Positions 3,264 to 58,017 of a DNA stretch of 64,000 nucleotides are shown here, piece by piece. The notes beneath the pieces were generated by a model. The model searched no databases and was not told where the DNA came from. It saw only the letters and a list, made by a program, of their open reading frames with translations. The translations under genes were made by a program, and so were the position numbers. Location: NCBI RefSeq assembly GCF_057098645.1, contig NZ_CM169472.1. One strand, written 5' to 3'. The number at the start of each line of letters is the position of its first letter. The first letter of the stretch is position 1.

Positions 3264-3395
3264 TCGCGATGTTGACTGTTCCGACGGTCAACATCAGGCA
3301 CCGGTTGCCACGGGGTTCTGGTAGTTTTGTGTATTTTAGTTTGTTAACATTCTGCTAAATTATCGTGGGCCATCGGTCCAGATAAGGGAGATATG

Positions 3396-32625: not shown

Positions 32626-33696
32626 TTATTTGATTTCAATTTTGTCCCACTCCCTGCCTCTGTCATCACGATACTGTGATGCCATGGTGTCCGACTTATG
32701 CCCGAGAAGATGTTGAGCAAACTTATCGCTTATCTGCTTCTCATAGAGTCTTGCAGACAAACTGCGCAACTCGTGAAAGGTAGGCGGATCCCCTTCGAAG
32801 GAAAGACCTGATGCTTTTCGTGCGCGCATAAAATACCTTGATACTGTGCCGGATGAAAGCGGTTCACGACGAGTAGATGCAATTATGGTTTCTCCGCCAA
32901 GAATCTCTTTGCATTTATCAAGTGTTTCCTTCATTGATATCCCGAGAGCATCAACATGCAATGTTGTAGGGATGGCAATTTTTACGCCTGTTTTGCTTTG
33001 TTCGACATAAAGATATCCATCTACGATATCAGACCACTTCATTTCGCATAAATCACCAACTCGCTGCCCGGTAACAACAGCCAGTTCCATTGCAAGTCTG
33101 AGCCAACATGGTGATGATTCTGCTGCTTGATAAATTTTCAGGTATTCGTCAGCCGTAAGTCTTGATCTCCTTACCTCTGATTTTGCTGCGCGAGTGGCAG
33201 CGACCGGGTTTGTTGTTATATGGCCTTCAGCTATTGCCTCTCGGAATGCATCGCTCAGTGTTGATCTGATTAACTTGGCTGACGCCGCCTTGCCCTCGTC
33301 TATGTATCCATTGAGCATTGCCGCAATTTCTTTTGTGGTGATGTCTTCAAGTGGAGCATCAGGCAGCCCCCTCCTTATTGCTTTAATTTTGCTCATGTAA
33401 TTTATGAGTGTCTTCTGCTTGATTCCTCTGCTGGCGAGGATTTTTTCGTAGCGATCAAGCCATGAATGTAACGTAACAGAATTATCACTGTTGATTCTCG
33501 CTGTCAGAGGCTTGTGTTTGTGTCCTGAAAATAACTCAATATTGGCCTGTATTGCTTCAGTGATTGCTATCCTCCTGTCTCGGCCTAAACCAAACTCTTT
33601 ACCCGTCCTTGGGTCCCTGTAGCAGTAATATCCATTGTTTCTTATATAAAGGTTAGGGGGTAAATCCCGGCGCTCATGACTTCGCCTTCTTCCCAT
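32626..33696 (-). CDS. int: Lambda integrase
   Basis: 356 aa, MGRRRSHERRDLPPNLYIRNNGYYCYRDPRTGKEFGLGRDRRIAITEAIQ..., matches recalled lambda Int. Confidence 0.97.
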   Translation of the reverse strand: MGRRRSHERRDLPPNLYIRNNGYYCYRDPRTGKEFGLGRDRRIAITEAIQANIELFSGHKHKPLTARINSDNSVTLHSWLDRYEKILASRGIKQKTLINYMSKIKAIRRGLPDAPLEDITTKEIAAMLNGYIDEGKAASAKLIRSTLSDAFREAIAEGHITTNPVAATRAAKSEVRRSRLTADEYLKIYQAAESSPCWLRLAMELAVVTGQRVGDLCEMKWSDIVDGYLYVEQSKTGVKIAIPTTLHVDALGISMKETLDKCKEILGGETIIASTRREPLSSGTVSRYFMRARKASGLSFEGDPPTFHELRSLSARLYEKQISDKFAQHLLGHKSDTMASQYRDDRGREWDKIEIK

Positions 33697-33918: not shown

Positions 33919-33940
33919 GAAAAAGCCGCCATCAGGCGGC
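33919..33940 (-). terminator. Intrinsic terminator for leftward transcription near orf55/xis
   Basis: On the minus strand gccgcc-tgat-ggcggc followed by TTTTT. Confidence 0.5.
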
Positions 33941-34099: not shown

Positions 34100-34341
34100 T
34101 TATCATCTCCATAAAACAAAACCCGCCGTAGCGAGTTCAGATAAAAGAAATCCTCGTCAGTGCGAGGATGCTGTTCATTGCTGCTATACACTTTTTTGCT
34201 CTCAACGTAAGCGGTAGCTCATTCTGTTGGGTTGGTGCAGTTGCTTTTAGGAAATGCTATTTACCCCTTAAACGTCGGCTGAAAGAGCTAAAATCCATGC
34301 AAAAAATTTACGCAATTTTGTGTATTATTGTGCAGTAAGTA

Positions 34342-34944
34342 ATGAGCTATTTTCTGCGCAAAAAATGGATGGTAAATTTGTCCGGGGCAGGAAAAATTTT
34401 ATGGGCGCTAAACATGAAAAAAGATTCGTATCCTTATTTGATTTGCATGACAGTTTCAGGCCTGATCTTTATTTTCCTTTTCTTCTGGTGGCGGGCAGAT
34501 ATTTACAGGGTCACGTTTCTTAATCAGAGTATATCCCACTATTACATTCTGTTTAGCATGGGAATAGCTTTTCTGTTATCTCTGTTTTGGGTTAAGAAGG
34601 GGATAGTAAAACAAAGCGGCTGGAAGAGTCTGTCAGCATACCTTAAGGTTTATGCAGGGATGTGCATATTTGCTGGATTTTTTCTGATTATACCCCTTAC
34701 AACACTAACTTATTTTTTGCCTGGAGAGACATCGTCTTATGTTGCACCGTATCGGTATACTTCCGGTAGTTCAAAAAGTTGTTCTGGAGCTGAGGTGGAT
34801 GACCCCGATCTACATGAGAATATTCGCATTTGCTATCCGTATGGCAATTATGAGTACGATAATATTATCTATGTTGAAAAGAAAATTAATACATTAGGTG
34901 CGGTAGTAACATATGCACAGACCGCGCGTGATGATACTGAATGA
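34342..34944 (+). CDS. Hypothetical membrane protein (3-4 predicted TM helices plus C-terminal soluble domain); start uncertain
   Basis: 200-aa ORF, visibly AT-rich, opposite strand to the pL operon, occupying the lambda ea8.5/ea22 slot. Confidence 0.5.
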   Translation: MSYFLRKKWMVNLSGAGKILWALNMKKDSYPYLICMTVSGLIFIFLFFWWRADIYRVTFLNQSISHYYILFSMGIAFLLSLFWVKKGIVKQSGWKSLSAYLKVYAGMCIFAGFFLIIPLTTLTYFLPGETSSYVAPYRYTSGSSKSCSGAEVDDPDLHENIRICYPYGNYEYDNIIYVEKKINTLGAVVTYAQTARDDTE

Positions 34945-35154
34945 GATAGTATATAGCGGGCAAGTTTTAGTTAATTTATCGAGGTAATATAATTTACCTC
35001 GACTCGTTTATTCTGGTATTAATATTTCGCTTTACGATCGATTTTTATCTGATGATATCATGCGGTTTTCATATACTGACTTACTGTCTTTTCTCCGTTA
35101 GCGATTTTCTCCTGCTCAGCGATGATTTTATCTTTGGCTTCTAGTTAATTTCGC

Positions 35155-35376
35155 TCACTTCGAACCTCTCTGTTTACTGATAAGTTCCAGATCCTCCTGG
35201 CAACTTGCACAAGTCCGACAACCCTGAACGGCCAGGCGTCTTCGCTCATCTATGGGATCGCCACACTCACAACAATGAGTGGCAGATATAGCCTGGTGGT
35301 TCAGGCGGCGCATTTTTATTGCTGTGTTGCGCTGTAATTCTTCAATTTCTGATGCTGAATCAATGATGTCTGCCAT
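35155..35376 (-). CDS. TraR/DksA-family C4 zinc-finger protein
   Basis: 73 aa, CxxC-x17-CxxC (HCCECGDPIDERRRLAVQGCRTCASCQ). Confidence 0.75.
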   Translation of the reverse strand: MADIIDSASEIEELQRNTAIKMRRLNHQAISATHCCECGDPIDERRRLAVQGCRTCASCQEDLELISKQRGSK

Positions 35377-35474
35377 CTTCCATTAATCCCTGAATTGTTG
35401 GTTAATACGCTTGAGGGTGAATGCGAACAATAAAAAAGGAGCCTGTAGCTCCCTGATGATTTTGCTTTTCATGC

Positions 35475-35690
35475 TCACCGTTCCTTAAAGACGCCGTTTA
35501 ACATGCCGATCGCCAGGCTTAAATGAGTCGGTGTGAATCCCATCAGCGTTACCGTTTCGCGGTGCTTCTTCAGTACGCTACGGCAAATGTCATCGACGTT
35601 TTTATCCGGAAACTGCTGTCTGGCTTTTTTGATTTCAGAATTAGCCTGACGGGCAATACTGCGAAGGGCGTTTTCTTGCTGAGGTGTCAT
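35475..35690 (-). CDS. Hypothetical small protein (71 aa from MTPQQENALRSIARQ...)
   Basis: ORF in the pL operon between the TraR-like gene and orf63. Confidence 0.5.
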   Translation of the reverse strand: MTPQQENALRSIARQANSEIKKARQQFPDKNVDDICRSVLKKHRETVTLMGFTPTHLSLAIGMLNGVFKER

Positions 35691-35766
35691 TGAACAAGTC
35701 CCATGTCGGCAAGCATAAGCACACAGAATATGAAGCCCGCTGCCAGAAAAATGCATTCAGTGGTTG

Positions 35767-35958
35767 TCATACCAGGTCTCTCTCATCTGCTTCTGCTTTC
35801 GCCACCATCATTTCCAGCTTTTGCGAAAGGGATGTGGCTAACGTATGAAATTCTTCGTCTGTTTCTACTGGTATTGGCACAAACCTGACTCCAATTTGAG
35901 CAAGGCTATGTGCCATCTCAATACTCGTTCTTAACTCAACAGGAGATGCTTTGTGCAT
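35767..35958 (-). CDS. Lambda orf63-like protein
   Basis: 63 aa, position upstream of orf60a/exo as in lambda. Confidence 0.55.
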   Translation of the reverse strand: MHKASPVELRTSIEMAHSLAQIGVRFVPIPVETDEEFHTLATSLSQKLEMMVAKAEADERDLV

Positions 35959-36113
35959 ATCGCCTCCCGTTTATTATTTATCTCCTCAGCCAGCCGCTGG
36001 GCTTTCAGCGGATTTCGGATAACAGAAAGGCCGGGAAATACCCAGCCTCGCTTCGTAACGGAGTAGACGAAAGTGATCGTGCCTACGCGGATATTATCGT
36101 GAGGATGCTTCAT
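35931..36113 (-). CDS. Lambda orf60a-like protein
   Basis: 60 aa from [24 protein letters not shown]..., immediately upstream of exo. Confidence 0.55.
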
Positions 36114-36790
36114 CGCCATTGCTCCCCAAATACAAAACCAATTTCAGCCAGTGCCTCGTCCATTTTTTCGATGAACTCCGGCACCATCTCGTCAAAACCC
36201 GCCATGTACTTTTCATCCCGCTCAACCACGACATAATGCAGGCCTTCACGCTTCATACGCGGGTCATAGTTGGCAAAGTACCAGGCATCTTTTCGCGTCA
36301 CCCACATGCTGTACTGCACCTGGGCCATGTAAGCCGACTTTATGGCCTCGAAACCACCGAGCCTGAACTTCATGAAATCCCGGGAGGTAAACGGGCATTT
36401 CAGCTCAAGGCCGTTGCCGTCACTGCATAAACCATCGGGAGAGCAGGCGGTGCGCATACTTTCGTCGCGATAGATGATCGGGGATTCAGTAACATTCACG
36501 CCGGAAGTGAATTCAAACAGGGTTCTGGCGTCGTTCTCGTACTGTTTTCCCCAGGCCAGCGCCTTAGCATTAACTTCCGGAGCCACACCGGTGCAAACCT
36601 CAGCCAGCAGGGTGTGGAAGTAGGACATTTTCATGTCAGGCCACTTCTTTCCTGAGCGGGGCTTTGCTATCACGTTGTGAACTTCTGAAGCGGTGATGAC
36701 GCCGAGCCGTAATTTGTGCCATGCATCATCCCCCTGTTCGACAGCTCTCACGTCGATCCCGGTACGCTGCAGGATAATGTCCGGTGTCAT
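36110..36790 (-). CDS. exo: Lambda exonuclease (Red-alpha)
   Basis: 226 aa, [58 protein letters not shown]... Confidence 0.95.
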
Positions 36791-37572
36791 GCTGCCACCT
36801 TCTGCTCAGTGGCTTTCTGTTTCAGGAATCCAAGAGCTTTCACTGCTTCGGCCTGTGTCAGTTCTGACGATGCGCGAATGTCGCGGCGAAATATCTGGGA
36901 ACAGAGCGGCAATAAGTCGTCATCCCATGTTTTATCCAGGGCGATTAGCAGAGTGTTAATCTCCTGCATGGTTTCATCGTTAACCGGAGTGATGTCGCGT
37001 TCCGGCTGGCGTTCTGCAGTGTATGCAGTATTTTCGACAATGCGCTCGGCTTCATCCTTGTCATAGATACCAGCAAATCCGAAGGCCAGACGGGCACACT
37101 GAATCATGGCTTTATGCCGTAACATCCGTTTAGGATGCGACTGCCACGGCCCCGTGATTTCTCTGCCTTCGCGGGTTTTGAATGGTTCGCGGCGGCATTC
37201 ATCCATCCATTCGGTAACGCAGATCGGATGATTACGGTCCTTGCGGTAAATCCGGCATGTACAGGATTCATTGTCCTGCTCAAAGTCCATGCCATCAAAC
37301 TGCTGGTTTTCATTGATGATGCGGGACCAGCCATCAACGCCCACCACCGGAACGATGCCGTTCTGCTTATCAGGGAAGGCGTAAATTTCTTTCGTCCACG
37401 GATTAAGGCCGTACTGGTTGGCGACGATCAACAATGCGATGAACTGCGCATCGCTGGCATCGCCTTTAAATGCCGTCTGGCGAAGAGTGGTGATCAGTTC
37501 CTGTGGGTCGACAGAATCCATGCCGACACGTTCAGCCAGCTTCCCTGCCAGCGTTGCGAGTGCTGTACTCAT
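36787..37572 (-). CDS. bet: Lambda Bet (Red-beta) single-strand annealing protein
   Basis: 261 aa, [59 protein letters not shown]... Confidence 0.95.
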
Positions 37573-37577
37573 CCGTT

Positions 37578-37994
37578 TTATACCTCTGAATCAATATCAA
37601 CCTGATGGTGAGCAATGGTTTCAACCATGTACCGGATGTGTTCTGCCATGCGCTCCTGAAACTCAACATCGTCATCAAACGCACGGGTAATGGCTTTTTT
37701 GCTGGCCCCGTGGCGTTGCAAATGACCGATGCATAGCGATTCAAACAGGTGCTGGGGCAGGCCTTTTTCCATGTCGTCTGCCAGTTCTGCCTCTTTCTCT
37801 TCACGGGCTATCTGCTGGTAGTGACGCGCCCAGCTCTGAGCCTCAAGACGATCCTGAATGTAATAAGCGTTCATGGCCGAACTCCTGAAATAGCTGTGAA
37901 AATATCGCCCGCGAAATGCCGGGCTGATTAGGAAAACAGGAAAGGGGGTTAGTGAATGCTTTTGCTTGATCTCAGTTTCAGTATTAATATCCAT
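37578..37994 (-). CDS. gam: Lambda Gam (RecBCD inhibitor)
   Basis: 138 aa, [61 protein letters not shown]... Confidence 0.95.
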
Positions 37995-38092
37995 TTTTTA
38001 TAAGCGTCGACGGCCTCACGAAACATCTTTTCATCGCCAATAAAAGTGGCGATAGTGAATTTAGTCTGGATAGCCATAATTGTTTGATCCAT
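37949..38092 (-). CDS. kil: Lambda Kil (FtsZ inhibitor)
   Basis: 47 aa, [47 protein letters not shown]. Confidence 0.85.
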
Positions 38093-38225
38093 TTTTTGGG
38101 ACTCCTGGCTGATTAAGTATGTCGATAAGGCGTTTCCATCCGTCACGTAATTTACGGGTGATTCGTTCAAGTAAAGATTCGGAAGGGCAGCCAGCAACAG
38201 GCCACCCTGCAATGGCATATTGCAT
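38061..38225 (-). CDS. cIII: Lambda cIII (FtsH inhibitor)
   Basis: 54-aa ORF beginning MQYAIAGWPVAGCPSESLLER, overlapping kil by 32 nt as in lambda; below the ORF-track cutoff. Confidence 0.85.
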   Translation of the reverse strand: MQYAIAGWPVAGCPSESLLERITRKLRDGWKRLIDILNQPGVPKNGSNNYGYPD

Positions 38226-38297
38226 GGTGTGCTCCTTATTTATACATAACGAAAAACGCCTCGAGTGAAGCGTAATTGGTATGCGGTAACGCCGCGC

Positions 38298-38854: not shown

Positions 38855-39736
38855 TTATGACCACTTTTTGTTTGGGTTTCGTTGGTGAGCGTGGTTTACA
38901 GGATTATTTGATATACCCCATAACTCTGACTCGCTTATCTCTACACGAGAGAAAGACCTGCTTTCTTTCAGTTCTTTTATAAACCTAGAACCTAAGATGA
39001 CATCTATTGTACCAGAAAGTTCTTGTAAAAGATCTTTGTTTTTTCTGAGGAAGAAAATATCTTCTTTATATTTAATTTTTACATAGAATTTATTCTGTAT
39101 TTTTAATATATCAAAGCATGGCAGATATCTATATCCCTCATATTTTCGCCACTGCTTAACAATTATAACATCTTTTTCATTTACTGCATTAATCAGCCCA
39201 AGACCAAGTACAGGTATGAATATTCTATTGTCTGCCGAAAGCGTACAATTATCACCACCAGGCAAATATGTATAAATCATGTCGGAATTTTTATACGCAT
39301 CAACGAATGCACGTAAGAAGCGTACATATTTTTGCCATCCGTTTATACCGAATTTACCATATAAGTATTCTTTATTTGTTAGAAGAAAACTATTTGTATC
39401 AGGATCCTTATCTACAGACCTGTCGATAAGATCTCCAACTACGTTTACAAAGTCAAAGACAGAGTTTAATAAGAACAATTGTCTTTCAGTAGGGCGAATT
39501 TCAATTATGTAGCCAGGATGAAGACGATATTGCATCTGCTTACGAAGTATACCGAACGCTTGGGTCCGAGCATCTGAAAGCAACTTCTTGTCGCCATCGC
39601 CGTGAGCATTGTTTCTAATAAAACTGATATAATTTGCTAATTTTTCAGCCTCTTTTTTGTGTTTTTTTCGCTCTGATGCTGAGTCTATTGGTTTTGGTAT
39701 GGACTTGTAATCAATCTTCTTCATTACGTACCTCAT
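38855..39736 (-). CDS. Uncharacterised 293-aa protein translationally coupled to N (lambda ral/sieB slot)
   Basis: Start ATG overlaps the N stop (ATGA), visibly AT-rich, lambda ral/sieB absent at this position; no motif I can assign. Confidence 0.6.
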   Translation of the reverse strand: MRYVMKKIDYKSIPKPIDSASERKKHKKEAEKLANYISFIRNNAHGDGDKKLLSDARTQAFGILRKQMQYRLHPGYIIEIRPTERQLFLLNSVFDFVNVVGDLIDRSVDKDPDTNSFLLTNKEYLYGKFGINGWQKYVRFLRAFVDAYKNSDMIYTYLPGGDNCTLSADNRIFIPVLGLGLINAVNEKDVIIVKQWRKYEGYRYLPCFDILKIQNKFYVKIKYKEDIFFLRKNKDLLQELSGTIDVILGSRFIKELKESRSFSRVEISESELWGISNNPVNHAHQRNPNKKWS

Positions 39737-40213: not shown

Positions 40214-40228
40214 GCCCTTCTTCAGGGC
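40214..40228 (-). promoter_or_regulatory. nutL boxB hairpin
   Basis: Minus-strand GCCCTGAAGAAGGGC, the lambda boxB sequence, between pL and N. Confidence 0.65.
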
Positions 40229-40279
40229 TTAATTTTTAAGAGCCTCACCTTCAATGGTGGTCAGTGCGTCCTGCTGATG

Positions 40280-40348
40280 GCTTAAAATTACAAGGAAGAT
40301 TGTATGTTGTAAACAAGAAATATTGTAAAAAAGGGACGTGAAAAACAA
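40280..40348 (-). promoter_or_regulatory. 434-type left operators (OL1-OL3) with the pL promoter
   Basis: Three 14-bp ACAA-N6-TTGT sites: ACAAGGAAGATTGT, ACAAGAAATATTGT, ACAAACTCCATTGT. Confidence 0.7.
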
Positions 40349-40408
40349 ACTCCATTGTTTTTAAACGGAAAATAGTTTGTTTTTTTGTTATCGAGATTGA
40401 GGTGGGGA

Positions 40409-41545: not shown

Positions 41546-41575
41546 ATGCAAACTCTTTCTGAACGCCTCAAGAAG
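41546..41575 (+). pseudogene. cro: 434-type cro truncated after codon 10 by an IS insertion
   Basis: ATG CAA ACT CTT TCT GAA CGC CTC AAG AAG (MQTLSERLKK) runs directly into the IS terminal repeat TGAACCGCCCC. Confidence 0.75.
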
Positions 41576-41617
41576 TGAACCGCCCCGGGTTTCCTGGAGA
41601 GTATTTTATCTGTGAAC

Positions 41618-42508
41618 TCAGGCTGCCAGATCATTATTTCCGATGGAAGCATAATAAGCTTTTTCTGCTTCTGCCGGAGGAATATGGCCCAGCCTTTCCA
41701 GCAATCGTCGATTGTTATACCAGTCCACCCACGTGAGTGTGGCCAGTTCCACTTCTGCACGGTTTTTCCAGCTCTTACGGTGTATTACCTCCGCTTTGTA
41801 AAGACCATTGATGCTCTCCGCCATCGCGTTGTCATACGAGTCGCCAGTACTCCCTGTTGATGCCAGTAATCCGGCTTCCTTAAGCCGCTGCGTGTAGGCC
41901 AGCGATACATACTGAGAACCTTTATCACTGTGATGGATTGTGCCGGACGGCCGACGGGCCCACAACGCCTGCTCCAGTGCATCCAGCACGAATGTTGTTT
42001 CCATGGATGATGAGACCTGCCATCCCACGATGTATCCGGCGAACACATCAATGATGAACGCCACATAAACGAAGCCCCGCCATGTGCTGACGTAAGTAAA
42101 ATCAGCCACCCACAGCTGGTCAGGTCGTTCTGCCACGAACTGACGGTTTACGCGGTCGCCTGCGGCAACGGCTTTCCGGCTGATGGTCGTACGGACCTTT
42201 TTACCCCGGAGAACACCGGCAAGTCCCATAACTGCCATGAGACGTGCCACAGTGCATCTGGCCACTCTGATACCTTCCCGTAACAACTGACGCCAGACTT
42301 TACGCACACCGTATACCTGGTGATTTTCATCGTATACGCGCTGTATCTCTTTCTTCAGCCAGTCATCGTGCTGCGCACGGGCACTGCGTTTATCCGGATG
42401 ATGTCGCTGTTGCTGACAGTGGTAATACGTTGACGGGGCAATATGCAGTTCGCTGCATAGCGGTCCGACCCCGTACTGCTCACGCAGCTTATCCAGCAGT
42501 GGCATCAT
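41618..42508 (-). CDS. IS629-like transposase OrfB (DDE/integrase domain)
   Basis: 296-aa ORF with IS3-family DDE region ([10 protein letters not shown]...[11 protein letters not shown]). Confidence 0.85.
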
Positions 42509-42831
42509 TTTTTCCAGAGGCGGTCGAACTCCGCCTTCGCAAAATAAGCGGAAGCCTGGCGAAGGATATCGTTACTGCGGCGCAGTTCACGATTTTCACG
42601 CTCCAGCTCTTTCAGACGCTGACGTTCAGCGGTGGTGAGCCCGCCATCACCGCCCCCGGTATCCCGCTCATGCTGGCGAACCCAGACACGCAGAGTCTCC
42701 GGCGTACAGCCAATCTTTGGAGCAATGGAACAAATTGTCGCCCATTGTGAGTCATATTCATCCTGACTTTCCAGAACCATACGAATCGCCCGCTGACGGA
42801 CTTCGGGGGAAAAACGAGTATTTTTAGTCAT
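42505..42831 (-). CDS. IS629-like transposase OrfA (HTH)
   Basis: 108 aa, [50 protein letters not shown]... Confidence 0.85.
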
Positions 42832-42885
42832 CCTGTTTACCTCTTTCTCAGGGAGTTTAGTCTCCAGGATTTCCGGGGCGGTTCA

Positions 42886-43265
42886 ACCAGCCAGAAAACG
42901 ACCTTTCTGTGGTGAAACCTGATGCTGCATGGGGGACAGCAGAAGACCTGACCGCCGCAGAGTGGATGTTTGACATGGTGAAGACTATCGCGCCATCAGC
43001 CAGAAAACCGAATTTTGCAGGGTGGGCTAACGATATCCGCCTGATGCGTGAACGTGACGGACGTAACCACCGCGATATGTGTGTGCTGTTCCGCTGGGCC
43101 TGCCAGGACAACTTCTGGTCCGGTAATGTGCTGAGCCCGGCCAAACTCCGCGACAAGTGGACCCAGCTCGAAATCAACCGTAACAAGCAACAGGCAGTCG
43201 TGACAGCCAGCAAACCAAAACTCGACCTGACAAACACAGACTGGATTTACGGGGTGGATTTATGA
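42886..43265 (+). pseudogene. O: Lambda O replication initiator, C-terminal fragment only
   Basis: ...WGTAEDLTAAEWMFDMVKTIAPSARKPNFAGWANDIRLMRERDGRNHRDMCVLFRW...TDWIYGVDL; begins at the IS boundary. Confidence 0.8.
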
Positions 43266-52556: not shown

Positions 52557-52728
52557 TAAAAAAAGCCAGCGACTGACCTGAAAAAGAAGACGCTGGCTAA
52601 AAGGCCTTATATGTTTGTAGAGACTTATTTTTCACAGACAGCAATGATGCCTGTCAATATATTATCAATATGCGGATTGTTTCAGTTACAGATGCCTTAT
52701 TAAGGAAAAAAACAGCCAGCTGTAGTGG

Positions 52729-53756
<1,028 letters not shown>

Positions 53757-53760
<4 letters not shown>

Positions 53761-54197
53761 TGCCACTGCTGGATAAGCTGCGTGAGCAGTACGGGGTCGG
53801 ACCGCTATGCAGCGAACTGCATATTGCCCCGTCAACGTATTACCACTGTCAGCAACAGCGACATCATCCGGATAAACGCAGTGCCCGTGCGCAGCGCGAT
53901 GACTGGCTGAAGAAAGAGATACAGCGCGTATACGATGAAAATCACAAGGTATACGGTGTGCGTAAAGTCTGGCGTCAGTTGTTACGGGAAGGTATCAGAG
54001 TGGCCAGATGCACTGTGGCACGTCTCATGGCGGTTATGGGACTTGCCGGTGTTCTCCGGGGTAAAAAGGTCCGTACGACCATCAGCCGGAAAGCCGTTGC
54101 CGCAGGCGACCGCGTAAACCGTCAGTTCGTGGCAGAACGACCTGACCAGCTGTGGGTGGCTGATTTTACTTACGTCAGCACATGGCAGGGCTTCGTG
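53757..54197 (+). pseudogene. IS629-like OrfB, N-terminal part (copy 2), interrupted by IS21-family insertion
   Basis: Matches copy-1 OrfB up to ...[14 protein letters not shown], then reads into the foreign element. Confidence 0.8.
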
Positions 54198-54294
54198 CGT
54201 ATTCCGCTCTATTCGATCACGGATTGGCATCGAAGTCCGATCAGCGATTCGCATCCATTCGATCAACCGGGAACTTAACTTTTTCTACCGCTTT

Positions 54295-55050
54295 TTAACG
54301 CGTTTTTTCGCTGCTTTCCACTACCGGGGGATTTTTCCTCAGTGACTCTCCCTGAAGGACCACTCGGTGTGAGTTATGTACCAGTCTGTCCAGGATGGCA
54401 TCTGCTGTTGTTGGGTTCTCCATCAGACCATGCCATTTATCTACCGGGAACTGGCTTACCACTATCGTGCTGCTTTGTCCGTAACGATCCTCTATGAGCT
54501 CCAGAAGGTCATTACACTGGGCGTTACTTAACTGTTCCAGCCCCAGATCGTCCAGGATTAGAACCTGTATTTTTTGCAACTGTTTCAGATATTTCAGCCA
54601 GCTGCCATCAACACGTCCCTGAGCCAGTTGTTCCAGTAATCGCCCGGTTCTACAGTACCGGACGCTGTGTTTCTGTCGACATGCCTGTTCGCCCAGCGCA
54701 TTGGCTATCCAGCTCTTGCCACATCCTGTCGGACCGGTTATCAGCAGGTTTTTCCTGTGGGTTATGTAGTGGCCGTTCAGCAGTTCTCTCATCTGTTCAG
54801 CCCGCAGACCTCTTGAGGCCGGATAGCGCAGCCCTTCCGGTGTTGCCTGGTATTTCAGGCCGGCATTTTTTCTCAACCGTGCCACACGGCTGTTTTCCCT
54901 GCTCAGAAGCTCGTCATCAACCAGCAGCGTCAGCCTTTCCTCGAACGACAGTTCGTCGTAGGTCTGAGGCGTTTCCCGCTGCCGTATCAGGCTCCCGGCC
55001 ATCGCCGGGAGTTTCAGTTGGGTCAGTTTGTTTAACAGGTTATCACTCAT
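54295..55050 (-). CDS. istB: IstB-like ATPase helper of IS21-family transposition
   Basis: Walker A GPTGCGKS; start taken at MSDNLLNKLTQLKLP within the longer ORF. Confidence 0.8.
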   Translation of the reverse strand: MSDNLLNKLTQLKLPAMAGSLIRQRETPQTYDELSFEERLTLLVDDELLSRENSRVARLRKNAGLKYQATPEGLRYPASRGLRAEQMRELLNGHYITHRKNLLITGPTGCGKSWIANALGEQACRQKHSVRYCRTGRLLEQLAQGRVDGSWLKYLKQLQKIQVLILDDLGLEQLSNAQCNDLLELIEDRYGQSSTIVVSQFPVDKWHGLMENPTTADAILDRLVHNSHRVVLQGESLRKNPPVVESSEKTR

Positions 55051-55066
55051 ACTGTTGTTCCTTCTG

Positions 55067-56602
55067 TCAGTGGTAGTAGCCCGGACCACGCAGGTTTTCA
55101 TGCTCTGAAGCATATGCCGGATGTTGTTCGCCCTGGCGGGATAATGGAAGCTCCAGGTTCTCCCGATGGTGACGCAGCAGATTGTCGATAAAGCGTCTGT
55201 CAGGGGCGTTATAGTGCAGGGCAACGTAACAGGCCTTTTCCAGCCGTTCCGGGCCGTATTTTTTCTGAAGTGCCAGCAGCCCCAGAACTGCACGATAAGC
55301 CAGTTCCGGATGGGGTTTTGCCTTCAGCATGGATTCAACCACCCGGCCTGTGGACGGGCCCGTACGTTTTCCCTGCTCGATCAGGCGTTCCGGTGTCCAT
55401 GTCCCGTGCTGCCGGTGGCGCTCTGGCATGTGAAGCGGATTGGTTGTGTGTTTATATTCATGTGTGCTGCGCGGATGTTGCGCCACACACTGCCCCTTGT
55501 GCCAGAGCTGTACCACCGACTGCCCCGCCTTCAGTGACAGACGCTGACCGACCAGTTCGTGTGGAACGGAGTACCAGTGACGGGCATATTCAACGTGGTA
55601 GTCAGGGCCAACCTTCACAGCTTTGTATTCCGTGTATTCATAAGGTGCCAGAGGCAGCGGAGAGAGTGCTGGCGCATCCAGTATGCGGAAGCGTTCTGCA
55701 CGGGTTTGATTGCCGTACCCCTTCATTGGCCGGTTATTCATGTCTGTCAGTAACTCCCTAAGGCGCGCATTCAGCGCCCTGAGCGTGTGGAAGGTTTCAT
55801 TACGGATGCGGGCAAGAAGCCATCGTTCAACGATGAGGACGCCGTTTTCTGCTTTTGGTTTATCTTTAGGTTTGCGTGGTCGGGCCGGGATGATAACCGT
55901 GCCATAGTGCTCAGCCAGTGCCTGATAACTGTCGTTGATGACAGGCTCATATCGATCGGCCTTTTTCACTGCGCTTCTGAGGTTATCGGGGATGAGCAGC
56001 TTCGGTACGCCGCCCAGGAAGGTCAGGCAACGGCTGTGGGCATTTAACCATGACATCATGTCCTGACCTTCGCACGCTTCAACGTAGGTATAGTTGGACG
56101 CCCCCATTACGGCCACGAAGATTGCCACGCGGCGTATCTCACCGGTGTCCGGATTAATAACAGGAACCGTAGGACCACAGAAGTCGATAAAAAGCTTTTC
56201 GCCGGCACGATGCTCCTGGCGCATGGAGAGACGTCGCGTTTTTTTCCACTCCCGGTAGCAACGGCAGAAGTGCGAGTATCCCATCGCTTTGTTACCCGCC
56301 TGTGCCTTGTATTCCATCCACAACAGTTGCCGCGTCACACCTGGTTTTCTCATTTCCGTATCGAAGTACAACATGTCAGGCATTACAAGCTCTGATGCAA
56401 AGGTGTCTTTGGGCGGAAAAATGAGTTTCTCCAGCGTGTCATGGGATATATCAGCAGGTAATGGCCATGACAGAGAAGAGGCTTTGAAGCGGGCAAGAAC
56501 CTCAAAAACGGTTGAGGCGCTGATGTGTAACGTCAGTCCGATACAACGGTTAGTCAGCTTCTTGTCGAACTTGAGCTGAAGGATCTTAAAACAGGTTTCC
56601 AT
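55067..56602 (-). CDS. istA: IstA-like IS21-family transposase; start uncertain
   Basis: Long ORF with N-terminal HTH and DDE-type core, ends 16 nt upstream of istB. Confidence 0.7.
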   Translation of the reverse strand: METCFKILQLKFDKKLTNRCIGLTLHISASTVFEVLARFKASSLSWPLPADISHDTLEKLIFPPKDTFASELVMPDMLYFDTEMRKPGVTRQLLWMEYKAQAGNKAMGYSHFCRCYREWKKTRRLSMRQEHRAGEKLFIDFCGPTVPVINPDTGEIRRVAIFVAVMGASNYTYVEACEGQDMMSWLNAHSRCLTFLGGVPKLLIPDNLRSAVKKADRYEPVINDSYQALAEHYGTVIIPARPRKPKDKPKAENGVLIVERWLLARIRNETFHTLRALNARLRELLTDMNNRPMKGYGNQTRAERFRILDAPALSPLPLAPYEYTEYKAVKVGPDYHVEYARHWYSVPHELVGQRLSLKAGQSVVQLWHKGQCVAQHPRSTHEYKHTTNPLHMPERHRQHGTWTPERLIEQGKRTGPSTGRVVESMLKAKPHPELAYRAVLGLLALQKKYGPERLEKACYVALHYNAPDRRFIDNLLRHHRENLELPLSRQGEQHPAYASEHENLRGPGYYH

Positions 56603-56742
56603 AGTGCTCCTGGATTTTCTCTTTCTGGACATTGACGTCTCCACTGGTTTAAACACGGCAATGGAGACTGTGGTGAAAAGAGTTAATTCCCGGAGTGACT
56701 GGCAGGATGCCAATCAATGATCGGAAGCATGCCAAATCGTGA

Positions 56743-57291
<549 letters not shown>

Positions 57292-57303
57292 GTTCACAGA
57301 TAA

Positions 57304-58017
<714 letters not shown>

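Follow-up and report, generated by a model that had tools for sequence, protein, structure and literature searches.

The minus-strand open reading frame at 35155..35376 of the window, by which we mean the whole 64,000-nucleotide stretch of contig NZ_CM169472.1 (assembly GCF_057098645.1), is almost certainly the delayed-early gene orf73 in the pL operon of a 434/lambda-type prophage, encoding a TraR-family protein that binds RNA polymerase (RNAP) and shuts down ribosome synthesis. The coordinates of the gene and of the elements that surround and control it are collected in Table 1.

The orf73 reading frame and its translation start

In the ORF listing the frame begins with ATG and runs for 73 codons to a TGA stop, which reads as TCA on the plus strand at 35155-35157. 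The product, MADIIDSASEIEELQRNTAIKMRRLNHQAISATHCCECGDPIDERRRLAVQGCRTCASCQEDLELISKQRGSK, carries an acidic motif close to its N terminus (D3-I-I-D6-S-A8, a D3xxD6xA8 arrangement), a finger in which C35-x2-C38 and C56-x2-C59 are separated by 17 residues (C35xxC38-x17-C56xxC59), an arginine pair (R46R47) and a glutamate at position 64. The arginine pair lies within E44-R-R-R47-L48 (E44xxR47L), the counterpart of the ExxRK motif of TraR, and two further cysteines, C36 and C53, fall outside the set of zinc ligands. An earlier sequence-only reading of this DNA had described a 73-residue protein with a CxxC-x17-CxxC finger, and the frame, its coordinates and the cysteine spacing all proved exact.

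The ATG is directly preceded by CAGGGATTAATGGAAG; the motif AGGGA lies at 35391..35387 on the minus strand, GGAAG abuts the start codon, and the annotators of phage 434 place the ribosome-binding site at 35387-35389, within AGGGA. A 31-codon upstream ORF ends in a TAA at 35385..35383, 6 nt before the orf73 ATG. The notion that orf73 is a chance or wrongly delimited frame was rejected, given the exact start and stop, the strong family scores and the presence of the gene in hundreds of phages and thousands of genomes.

Orf73 is a member of the TraR/DksA zinc-finger superfamily

The window protein belongs to the TraR/DksA C4 zinc-finger superfamily, with a score of 35.8 bits against Pfam PF01258 (zf-dskA_traR; gathering cut-off 24.9) for residues 33-64, aligned with profile positions 4-35 of 36. 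PHROG family phrog_54, 'DksA-like zinc-finger protein', is matched by residues 1-71 with E=2e-25. The NCBIfam model TIGR02419 (phage/conjugal plasmid C4 zinc finger, TraR family) is matched over its whole length (1-64 of 64, E=5.6e-15), at a score of 55.7 bits that marginally misses the cut-off of 59.7. In a phmmer search of PDB sequences, residues 1-64 align with residues 1-66 of F-plasmid TraR (5w1s, 6n57); this alignment pairs C35, C38, C56 and C59 with the four zinc ligands of TraR, D3, D6 and A8 with TraR D3, D6 and A8, and R46 and R47 with TraR R48 and R49.

A HMMER search over 1.84 billion representative proteins returned 568 relatives at E<=0.001, from which alignment A1 was assembled with 90 full-length, finger-containing relatives together with the window protein, lambda Orf73 and TraR. 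C35, C38, R46, C56 and C59 are invariant in all 90 homologues, D6 and R47 are each kept in 87, A8 in 83 and E64 in 77; position 3 is D in 77 and E in 10 more. The additional cysteines are less widely shared, C53 being present in 53 of the 90 and C36 in two. The window protein has the consensus residue at every conserved position of A1, and an HMM derived from this alignment found no second TraR-like frame among the 847 six-frame ORFs of at least 40 aa in the window.

Orthology with F TraR itself was rejected. The conjugal-TraR equivalog model NF010268 gives the window protein 26.3 bits, far below its cut-off of 108, so Orf73 is better described as a TraR-like phage protein, and its gene lies in a phage pL operon rather than in a tra operon by trbI/traV. 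DksA proper was likewise rejected, on the length of 73 aa, the position of the acidic motif at the extreme N terminus, partial coverage in Foldseek comparisons and the NCBIfam equivalog scores.

The predicted fold best matches RNAP-bound TraR

An AlphaFold2 model of the window protein, built on alignment A1 (mean pLDDT 85.3), comprises a helix at residues 3-22, a zinc knuckle, a short helix at 44-49 and a helix at 57-70. The predicted layout is thus an N-terminal helix, a zinc-binding globular domain and a C-terminal helix that carries E64, with no counterpart of the DksA coiled-coil hairpin. Foldseek ranked RNAP-bound TraR (6n57_M) first among PDB structures (TM 0.70, rmsd 2.6 Å, 71 columns), followed by YbiI, the TraR chains of 5W1S and then structures of DksA, which cover the model only partly (7khi_M, TMt 0.40; 1tjl_A, TMt 0.35). 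A sequence search of our PDB copy found no solved structure of Orf73 itself. The acidic tip, which the sequence-only reading had singled out as the feature whose absence would speak against a TraR/DksA relationship, is present as D3, D6 and A8, and the family claim itself stands on the Pfam score, the residue 1-64 alignment with F TraR and RNAP-bound TraR as the best match of the model.

F TraR (PDB 5W1S, 6N57) shares with Orf73 its length of 73 aa, the same three-part architecture, DxxDxA at residues 3-8, the 17-residue finger spacing, the paired arginines and an acidic residue in the C-terminal part. The two differ in that their identity is only about 31-34%, in the location of the genes in a phage early operon and the tra operon, respectively, and in the addition of C36 and C53 in Orf73. 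E. coli DksA (PDB 1TJL, 7KHI) has in common with Orf73 the zf-dskA_traR finger, the acidic DxxDxA at the RNAP active site and the secondary-channel binding site. DksA is, however, a protein of 151 aa with a coiled-coil hairpin whose tip displays the motif, and it is fully active only with ppGpp; Orf73 spans no more than the equivalent of the DksA C-terminal half and, as lambda Orf73 demonstrates, is independent of ppGpp. E. coli YbiI (PDB 2KGO) is the best PDB sequence match over the finger (E=2.9e-5, Orf73 residues 29-65); yet YbiI is a chromosomal protein of 88 aa, the match consists of the finger without the N-terminal helix, the superposition is poor (TM 0.45), and Orf73 scores 39 bits against the YbiI model NCBIfam NF008243, far below the equivalog cut-off of 96.

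A small DNA- or RNA-binding zinc-ribbon could in principle share the CxxC...CxxC spacing with TraR and DksA and nothing more, and Orf73 does produce sub-threshold Pfam matches to C1_1 (E=0.034) and RecO_C (E=0.15), as well as Foldseek matches to ribosomal zinc-ribbon proteins, the latter only at E>0.7. Against this, the similarity to TraR runs the whole length of Orf73 and is not confined to the finger, Orf73 has the conserved DxxDxA at its N terminus as well as the arginine pair and the acidic residue of the C-terminal helix, and the near-identical lambda protein binds RNAP at the DksA site. We regard a generic zinc-ribbon as extremely improbable, the full-length TraR similarity and the RNAP binding of lambda Orf73 having effectively refuted it.

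Orf73 is identical to its phage 434 counterpart and differs from lambda Orf73 at one residue

The window protein is 100% identical to CPT_434_37 of phage 434 (OL657226.1, 28073..28294), a protein labelled only 'zinc finger domain protein' in the 434 record; there is no difference within the gene, and the IS insertions and deletions that set the window prophage apart from 434 lie elsewhere. Around orf73, a 3.6-kb stretch matches phage 434 (OL657226) at 99.9% identity, a value that also holds over the surrounding 5 kb; the parts of the 3.6-kb stretch that lambda shares are about 97% identical to it (97.6% over window 35143..38262). Lambda orf73 (NC_001416 30392..30613, minus strand, between ea22 and orf61) specifies a protein identical to that of the window at 72 of 73 residues, with the same length, six cysteines, DxxDxA, ExxRL and RR motifs, the sole difference being A49 in the window and V49 in lambda. 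The lambda RefSeq record NC_001416 contains no CDS feature for orf73 at this position (L002 2893..3114), despite the experimental characterization of the protein.

The A49/V49 difference was considered as a mark of a degenerate copy and rejected, since A is the majority residue in A1 (68 of 90 homologues) and V occurs in only two; by sequence comparison, it is the window protein that has the family consensus at residue 49, and lambda is the outlier. As A49 is the consensus state, the published biochemistry of lambda Orf73 should transfer, and by analogy the A49 form would be expected to behave as lambda Orf73 does, binding RNAP at the DksA site and inhibiting promoters without ppGpp.

orf73 lies in an uninterrupted early-left operon

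On the pL (early-left) strand, orf73 sits between exo and xis, and it shares this strand with int, xis, exo, bet, gam, kil, cIII, ea10 and N. The order exo, orf60a, orf63, an orf61-like frame, a small ORF and orf73 is the exo-xis arrangement of lambda and 434, and the position between orf61 and the xis-proximal variable region is the same as in lambda. Regulatory coordinates were carried over from the annotated 434 genome by way of the colinear 99.9% alignment, which extends from the 434-type pL/oL, nutL and N down to orf73 with no insertion. The placement in an early-left operon that the sequence-only reading had put forward is confirmed by the strand, by the position between exo and xis, and by this uninterrupted colinearity with 434 from pL.

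Table 1. Coordinates of orf73, its control elements and the IS elements of the prophage. Positions refer to the window.
Feature	Coordinates	Strand	Basis or remark
orf73 CDS, TraR-family zinc-finger protein	35155..35376	-	ORF listing, profile searches, alignment, model
orf73 translation-initiation region	35377..35391	-	sequence reading only; putative function
Terminator-like hairpin with T-run, AGGGAGCU-ACA-GGCUCCUU UUUUAUU	35436..35454	-	pattern scan; predicted
Second terminator-like hairpin with T-run	36027..36049	-	pattern scan; pL-transcribed strand, exo-xis region
Antiterminator gene N, lambda-type, 107 aa	39733..40056	-	upstream of orf73, same operon
nutL boxB stem-loop	40213..40229	-	434 annotation; also found by hairpin scan at 40214..40228
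pL promoter and 434-type operators oL1-oL3	40278..40358	-	transferred from phage 434; 1-nt uncertainty
434-type cI repressor gene, 210 aa	40810..41442	-	keeps pL, hence orf73, silent in the lysogen
IS3-family element, IS629-like end TGAACCGCCCCGGG	41576..42928		directly after codon 10 of 434 cro
IS3-family element, orfB	41618..42508		
IS3-family element, orfA	42505..42831		
IS21-like istB	54295..55293	-	
IS21-like istA	55067..56713	-	

Two terminator-like hairpins precede the gene on the transcribed strand (Table 1). The nearer one stands 60 nt upstream of orf73, inside both the pL transcription unit and the 31-codon ORF, and is identical in lambda; the 51-nt fragment that contains it has a folding energy of -11.1 kcal/mol, with z = -2.3 for the fragment as a whole. 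If these hairpins are real terminators, expression of orf73 depends on antitermination by N, a dependence that would fit orf73 as a delayed-early gene. A consensus promoter scan gave no support for a private orf73 promoter, with nine sigma-70-like sites found and 13.2 in shuffled sequence. We infer that orf73 in the window is expressed only when the 434 cI repressor is inactivated.

Several further features were noted in and beside this operon. In the orf61 region (window 35475..35756, minus strand) the window and 434 carry an A6 homopolymer and lambda an A7 (L002 3213..3525); the A6 run gives a single 93-codon frame in the window, matched full length by PHROG phrog_303, whereas in the lambda reference the region is divided between orf61 (61 aa) and a 60-aa frame that overlaps it. 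Lambda orf61 may be a frameshifted form, or the A-run a slippery site. Downstream of orf73, where lambda has ea22 and ea8.5, the window and 434 instead have two plus-strand ORFs for putative membrane proteins, as the 434 record terms them. These opposite-strand ORFs, of 56 aa and 200 aa, directly follow orf73 (window 34168..34944) and are moron-like and convergent with pL transcription, with a terminator-like hairpin at 34979..35002 on the plus strand; the C-terminal 88 aa of the 200-aa ORF match phrog_1416 (unknown function). Immediately downstream of N, a 293-aa ORF (window 38855..39736, minus strand), labelled 'Nun C-terminal peptide-containing protein' in 434, matches the C-terminal peptide of HK022 Nun with its last 20 residues (phrog_5632, E=7e-5) and phrog_12139 (unknown function) over the rest.

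Activity of lambda Orf73 and the proposed mechanism

Purified lambda Orf73 was characterised by Gopalkrishnan et al. (mBio 2022, PMC9239242). It complements a dksA deletion on minimal medium, competes with labelled DksA for E. coli RNAP with half-maximal effect at 0.65-1 µM, and in the absence of ppGpp inhibits rpsT P2 and, with an IC50 of about 50 nM as for TraR, rrnB P1; D3N or D6N substitutions strongly weaken inhibition (PMC9239242). Driven by pL in a defective prophage unable to replicate, Orf73 brought pre-rRNA down to 29% and rpsT mRNA to 45%, slowed growth and lowered plating efficiency by about 10^4-fold (PMC9239242). Independently, Donaldson (PMC8614690) used TraR as the basis for a model of lambda Orf73 and described the same hallmarks, with ExxRL replacing ExxRK. 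In cryo-EM work on the TraR-RNAP complex, the N-terminal helix occupies the secondary channel, the C-terminal helix touches beta Si1, and the globular domain rests against beta'Si3 and the rim helices, a contact made by TraR R48/R49 (PMC9239242).

On this basis we propose a mechanism in which Orf73, as a TraR-family protein, would bind no DNA. Its N-terminal helix would enter the secondary channel of host RNAP and bring the DxxDxA residues D3, D6 and A8 near the active site, the C4 zinc knuckle with R46/R47 would lie at the channel rim and on beta'Si3, and the C-terminal helix would contact the beta lobe/Si1. Without ppGpp, Orf73 would then destabilise open complexes at intrinsically unstable promoters (rrn P1 and ribosomal protein promoters), so that ribosome synthesis would be switched off and host growth slowed; in an intact phage, the yield would rise.

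The activating side of TraR and DksA is less evident in Orf73. F TraR activates host and tra promoters, whereas lambda Orf73 activates thrABC, argI and rpoH P3 weakly if at all, which its authors tentatively tie to the two extra cysteines, and had no effect on the lambda lytic promoters tested (PMC9239242). Since the host promoters examined were not activated, Orf73 is not a full mimic of DksA/ppGpp, and of the ppGpp/DksA mimicry invoked by the sequence-only reading the inhibitory half holds, as shown with lambda Orf73 (PMC9239242), while the activating half finds weak if any counterpart at these promoters. It is conceivable, though improbable, that the consensus A49 form, unlike lambda V49, can also activate promoters, because residue 49 adjoins the R46/R47 contact with beta'Si3.

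The main role of Orf73 has also been sought in the lysis-lysogeny decision or in a block to host replication initiation ('bin', exo-xis region), rather than in an rRNA shut-off that diverts resources. According to the account given in PMC8614690, the Wegrzyn laboratory found orf73 and ea22 to be pro-lysogenic, with an orf73 deletion that lowered host survival and lysogenisation efficiency; the infection assays of Zdrojewska et al. 2019, as cited there and in PMC9239242, describe orf73 as 'pro-lysogenic', with the opposite sign on phage yield. Earlier work cited in PMC9239242 counts orf73 with the genes that prevent host replication from initiating. At higher concentrations, lambda Orf73 also acts in vitro on dnaA P2 and P1, with inhibitory IC50 values of about 0.42 and 1.7 µM, respectively (PMC9239242), and might use the same RNAP contact on such other promoters. 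However, Orf73 supplied by a single-copy prophage lowered dnaA mRNA only slightly or not at all, and the phage yield of mitomycin C-induced intact lysogens was 3- to 4-fold higher with wild-type orf73 than with D3A/D6A point mutants or an in-frame deletion (PMC9239242), which argues for a pro-lytic role. We therefore consider it unlikely that lysogeny or replication control is the principal function; these effects would be an added downstream consequence of the same mechanism and not a competitor to the shut-off of ribosome synthesis.

An intact orf73 in a defective prophage

The window from position 1 to about 32500 is E. coli chromosome from the ybhJ-ybhI-ybhC side of the lambda attachment site, and this host flank is 100% identical to O145:H28 strains. 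The 434-like prophage at attB-lambda begins with int (32626..33696). The int-xis segment is 98.9% identical to 434, compared with 99.9% elsewhere, which suggests a recombination boundary; about 430 bp of 434 (L001 990..1420), containing the hypothetical gene CPT_434_33, is absent at window ~33920..33930, between xis and the next small ORF.

Two sets of IS elements disrupt the prophage. The cro ATG lies at 41547 and the end of an IS3-family element at 41576, so that cro is truncated after codon 10; at this element about 1.2 kb of phage DNA is missing, comprising cro beyond codon 10, nutR, cII, oop and the 5' half of O, which includes the four ori iterons. The cro/IS junction was found contiguous in none of 5426 complete E. 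coli genomes. In the late region, a 5.2-kb IS nest (52721..57935) that is absent from phage 434 separates the SASA-family esterase gene from the holin/endolysin lysis genes, and is made up of IS3-family fragments, an interrupted IS629-like copy and an IS21-like istA/istB pair. cI, Hex, pL, N and the entire pL operon are intact.

Such damage raises the question of whether orf73 is here an intact but functionless passenger, silenced by cI in a defective prophage and awaiting decay, as the loss of the cro-O segment and the IS nest in the late region would suggest. Against this reading, neither orf73 with its translation-initiation region nor the set of upstream elements formed by pL, the oL operators, nutL and N shows any damage, their sequences matching phage 434 at 99.9%; the protein retains the consensus residue at every conserved position, and a comparably defective, non-replicating lambda prophage sufficed for Orf73 to cut rRNA synthesis and plating efficiency. 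The combination of an intact pL-orf73 unit with the activity seen from the defective lambda prophage indicates that Orf73 would still act if pL were derepressed, and we hold the passenger view to be possible but doubtful.

The preferred reading, in which Orf73 is an RNAP-binding inhibitor of ribosome synthesis, has a restricted outcome in this prophage. With cro, cII and ori lost, induction cannot lead to a productive burst, and the burst-size benefit does not apply. Reprogramming of host transcription on induction, which the sequence-only reading had suggested as a possibility, has been demonstrated for lambda Orf73 after pL induction, but would not be part of a productive lytic cycle here. 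Induction could still derepress pL, and we infer that N, Kil, Gam and Orf73 would then be expressed without being turned down by Cro. This arrangement resembles the engineered defective lambda lysogen in which Orf73 alone caused the roughly 10^4-fold drop in plating. It is conceivable, though improbable, that Orf73, Kil and Gam have been co-opted as an SOS-triggered, ppGpp-free host growth-arrest module in the non-replicating prophage; as Cro is absent, pL would not be turned down after derepression, and the shut-off of rRNA synthesis would be sustained.

Prevalence and significance

The gene, its family, a structural model and the mechanism are already known and published for lambda (PMC9239242, PMC8614690), and the value of the present analysis is confirmatory, in that the reading of orf73 from raw sequence as a TraR-like regulator is correct. 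What is locally notable is that orf73 and the repressible pL in front of it are both intact in a prophage whose IS elements have cost it replication and the ability to make Cro. The gene is widespread, being present in 3307-3315 of 5426 complete E. coli genomes (3307 at a coverage of at least 80%), with up to six copies per genome, and in 435 phage and 202 plasmid records; PGAP names its product 'TraR/DksA family transcriptional regulator'.
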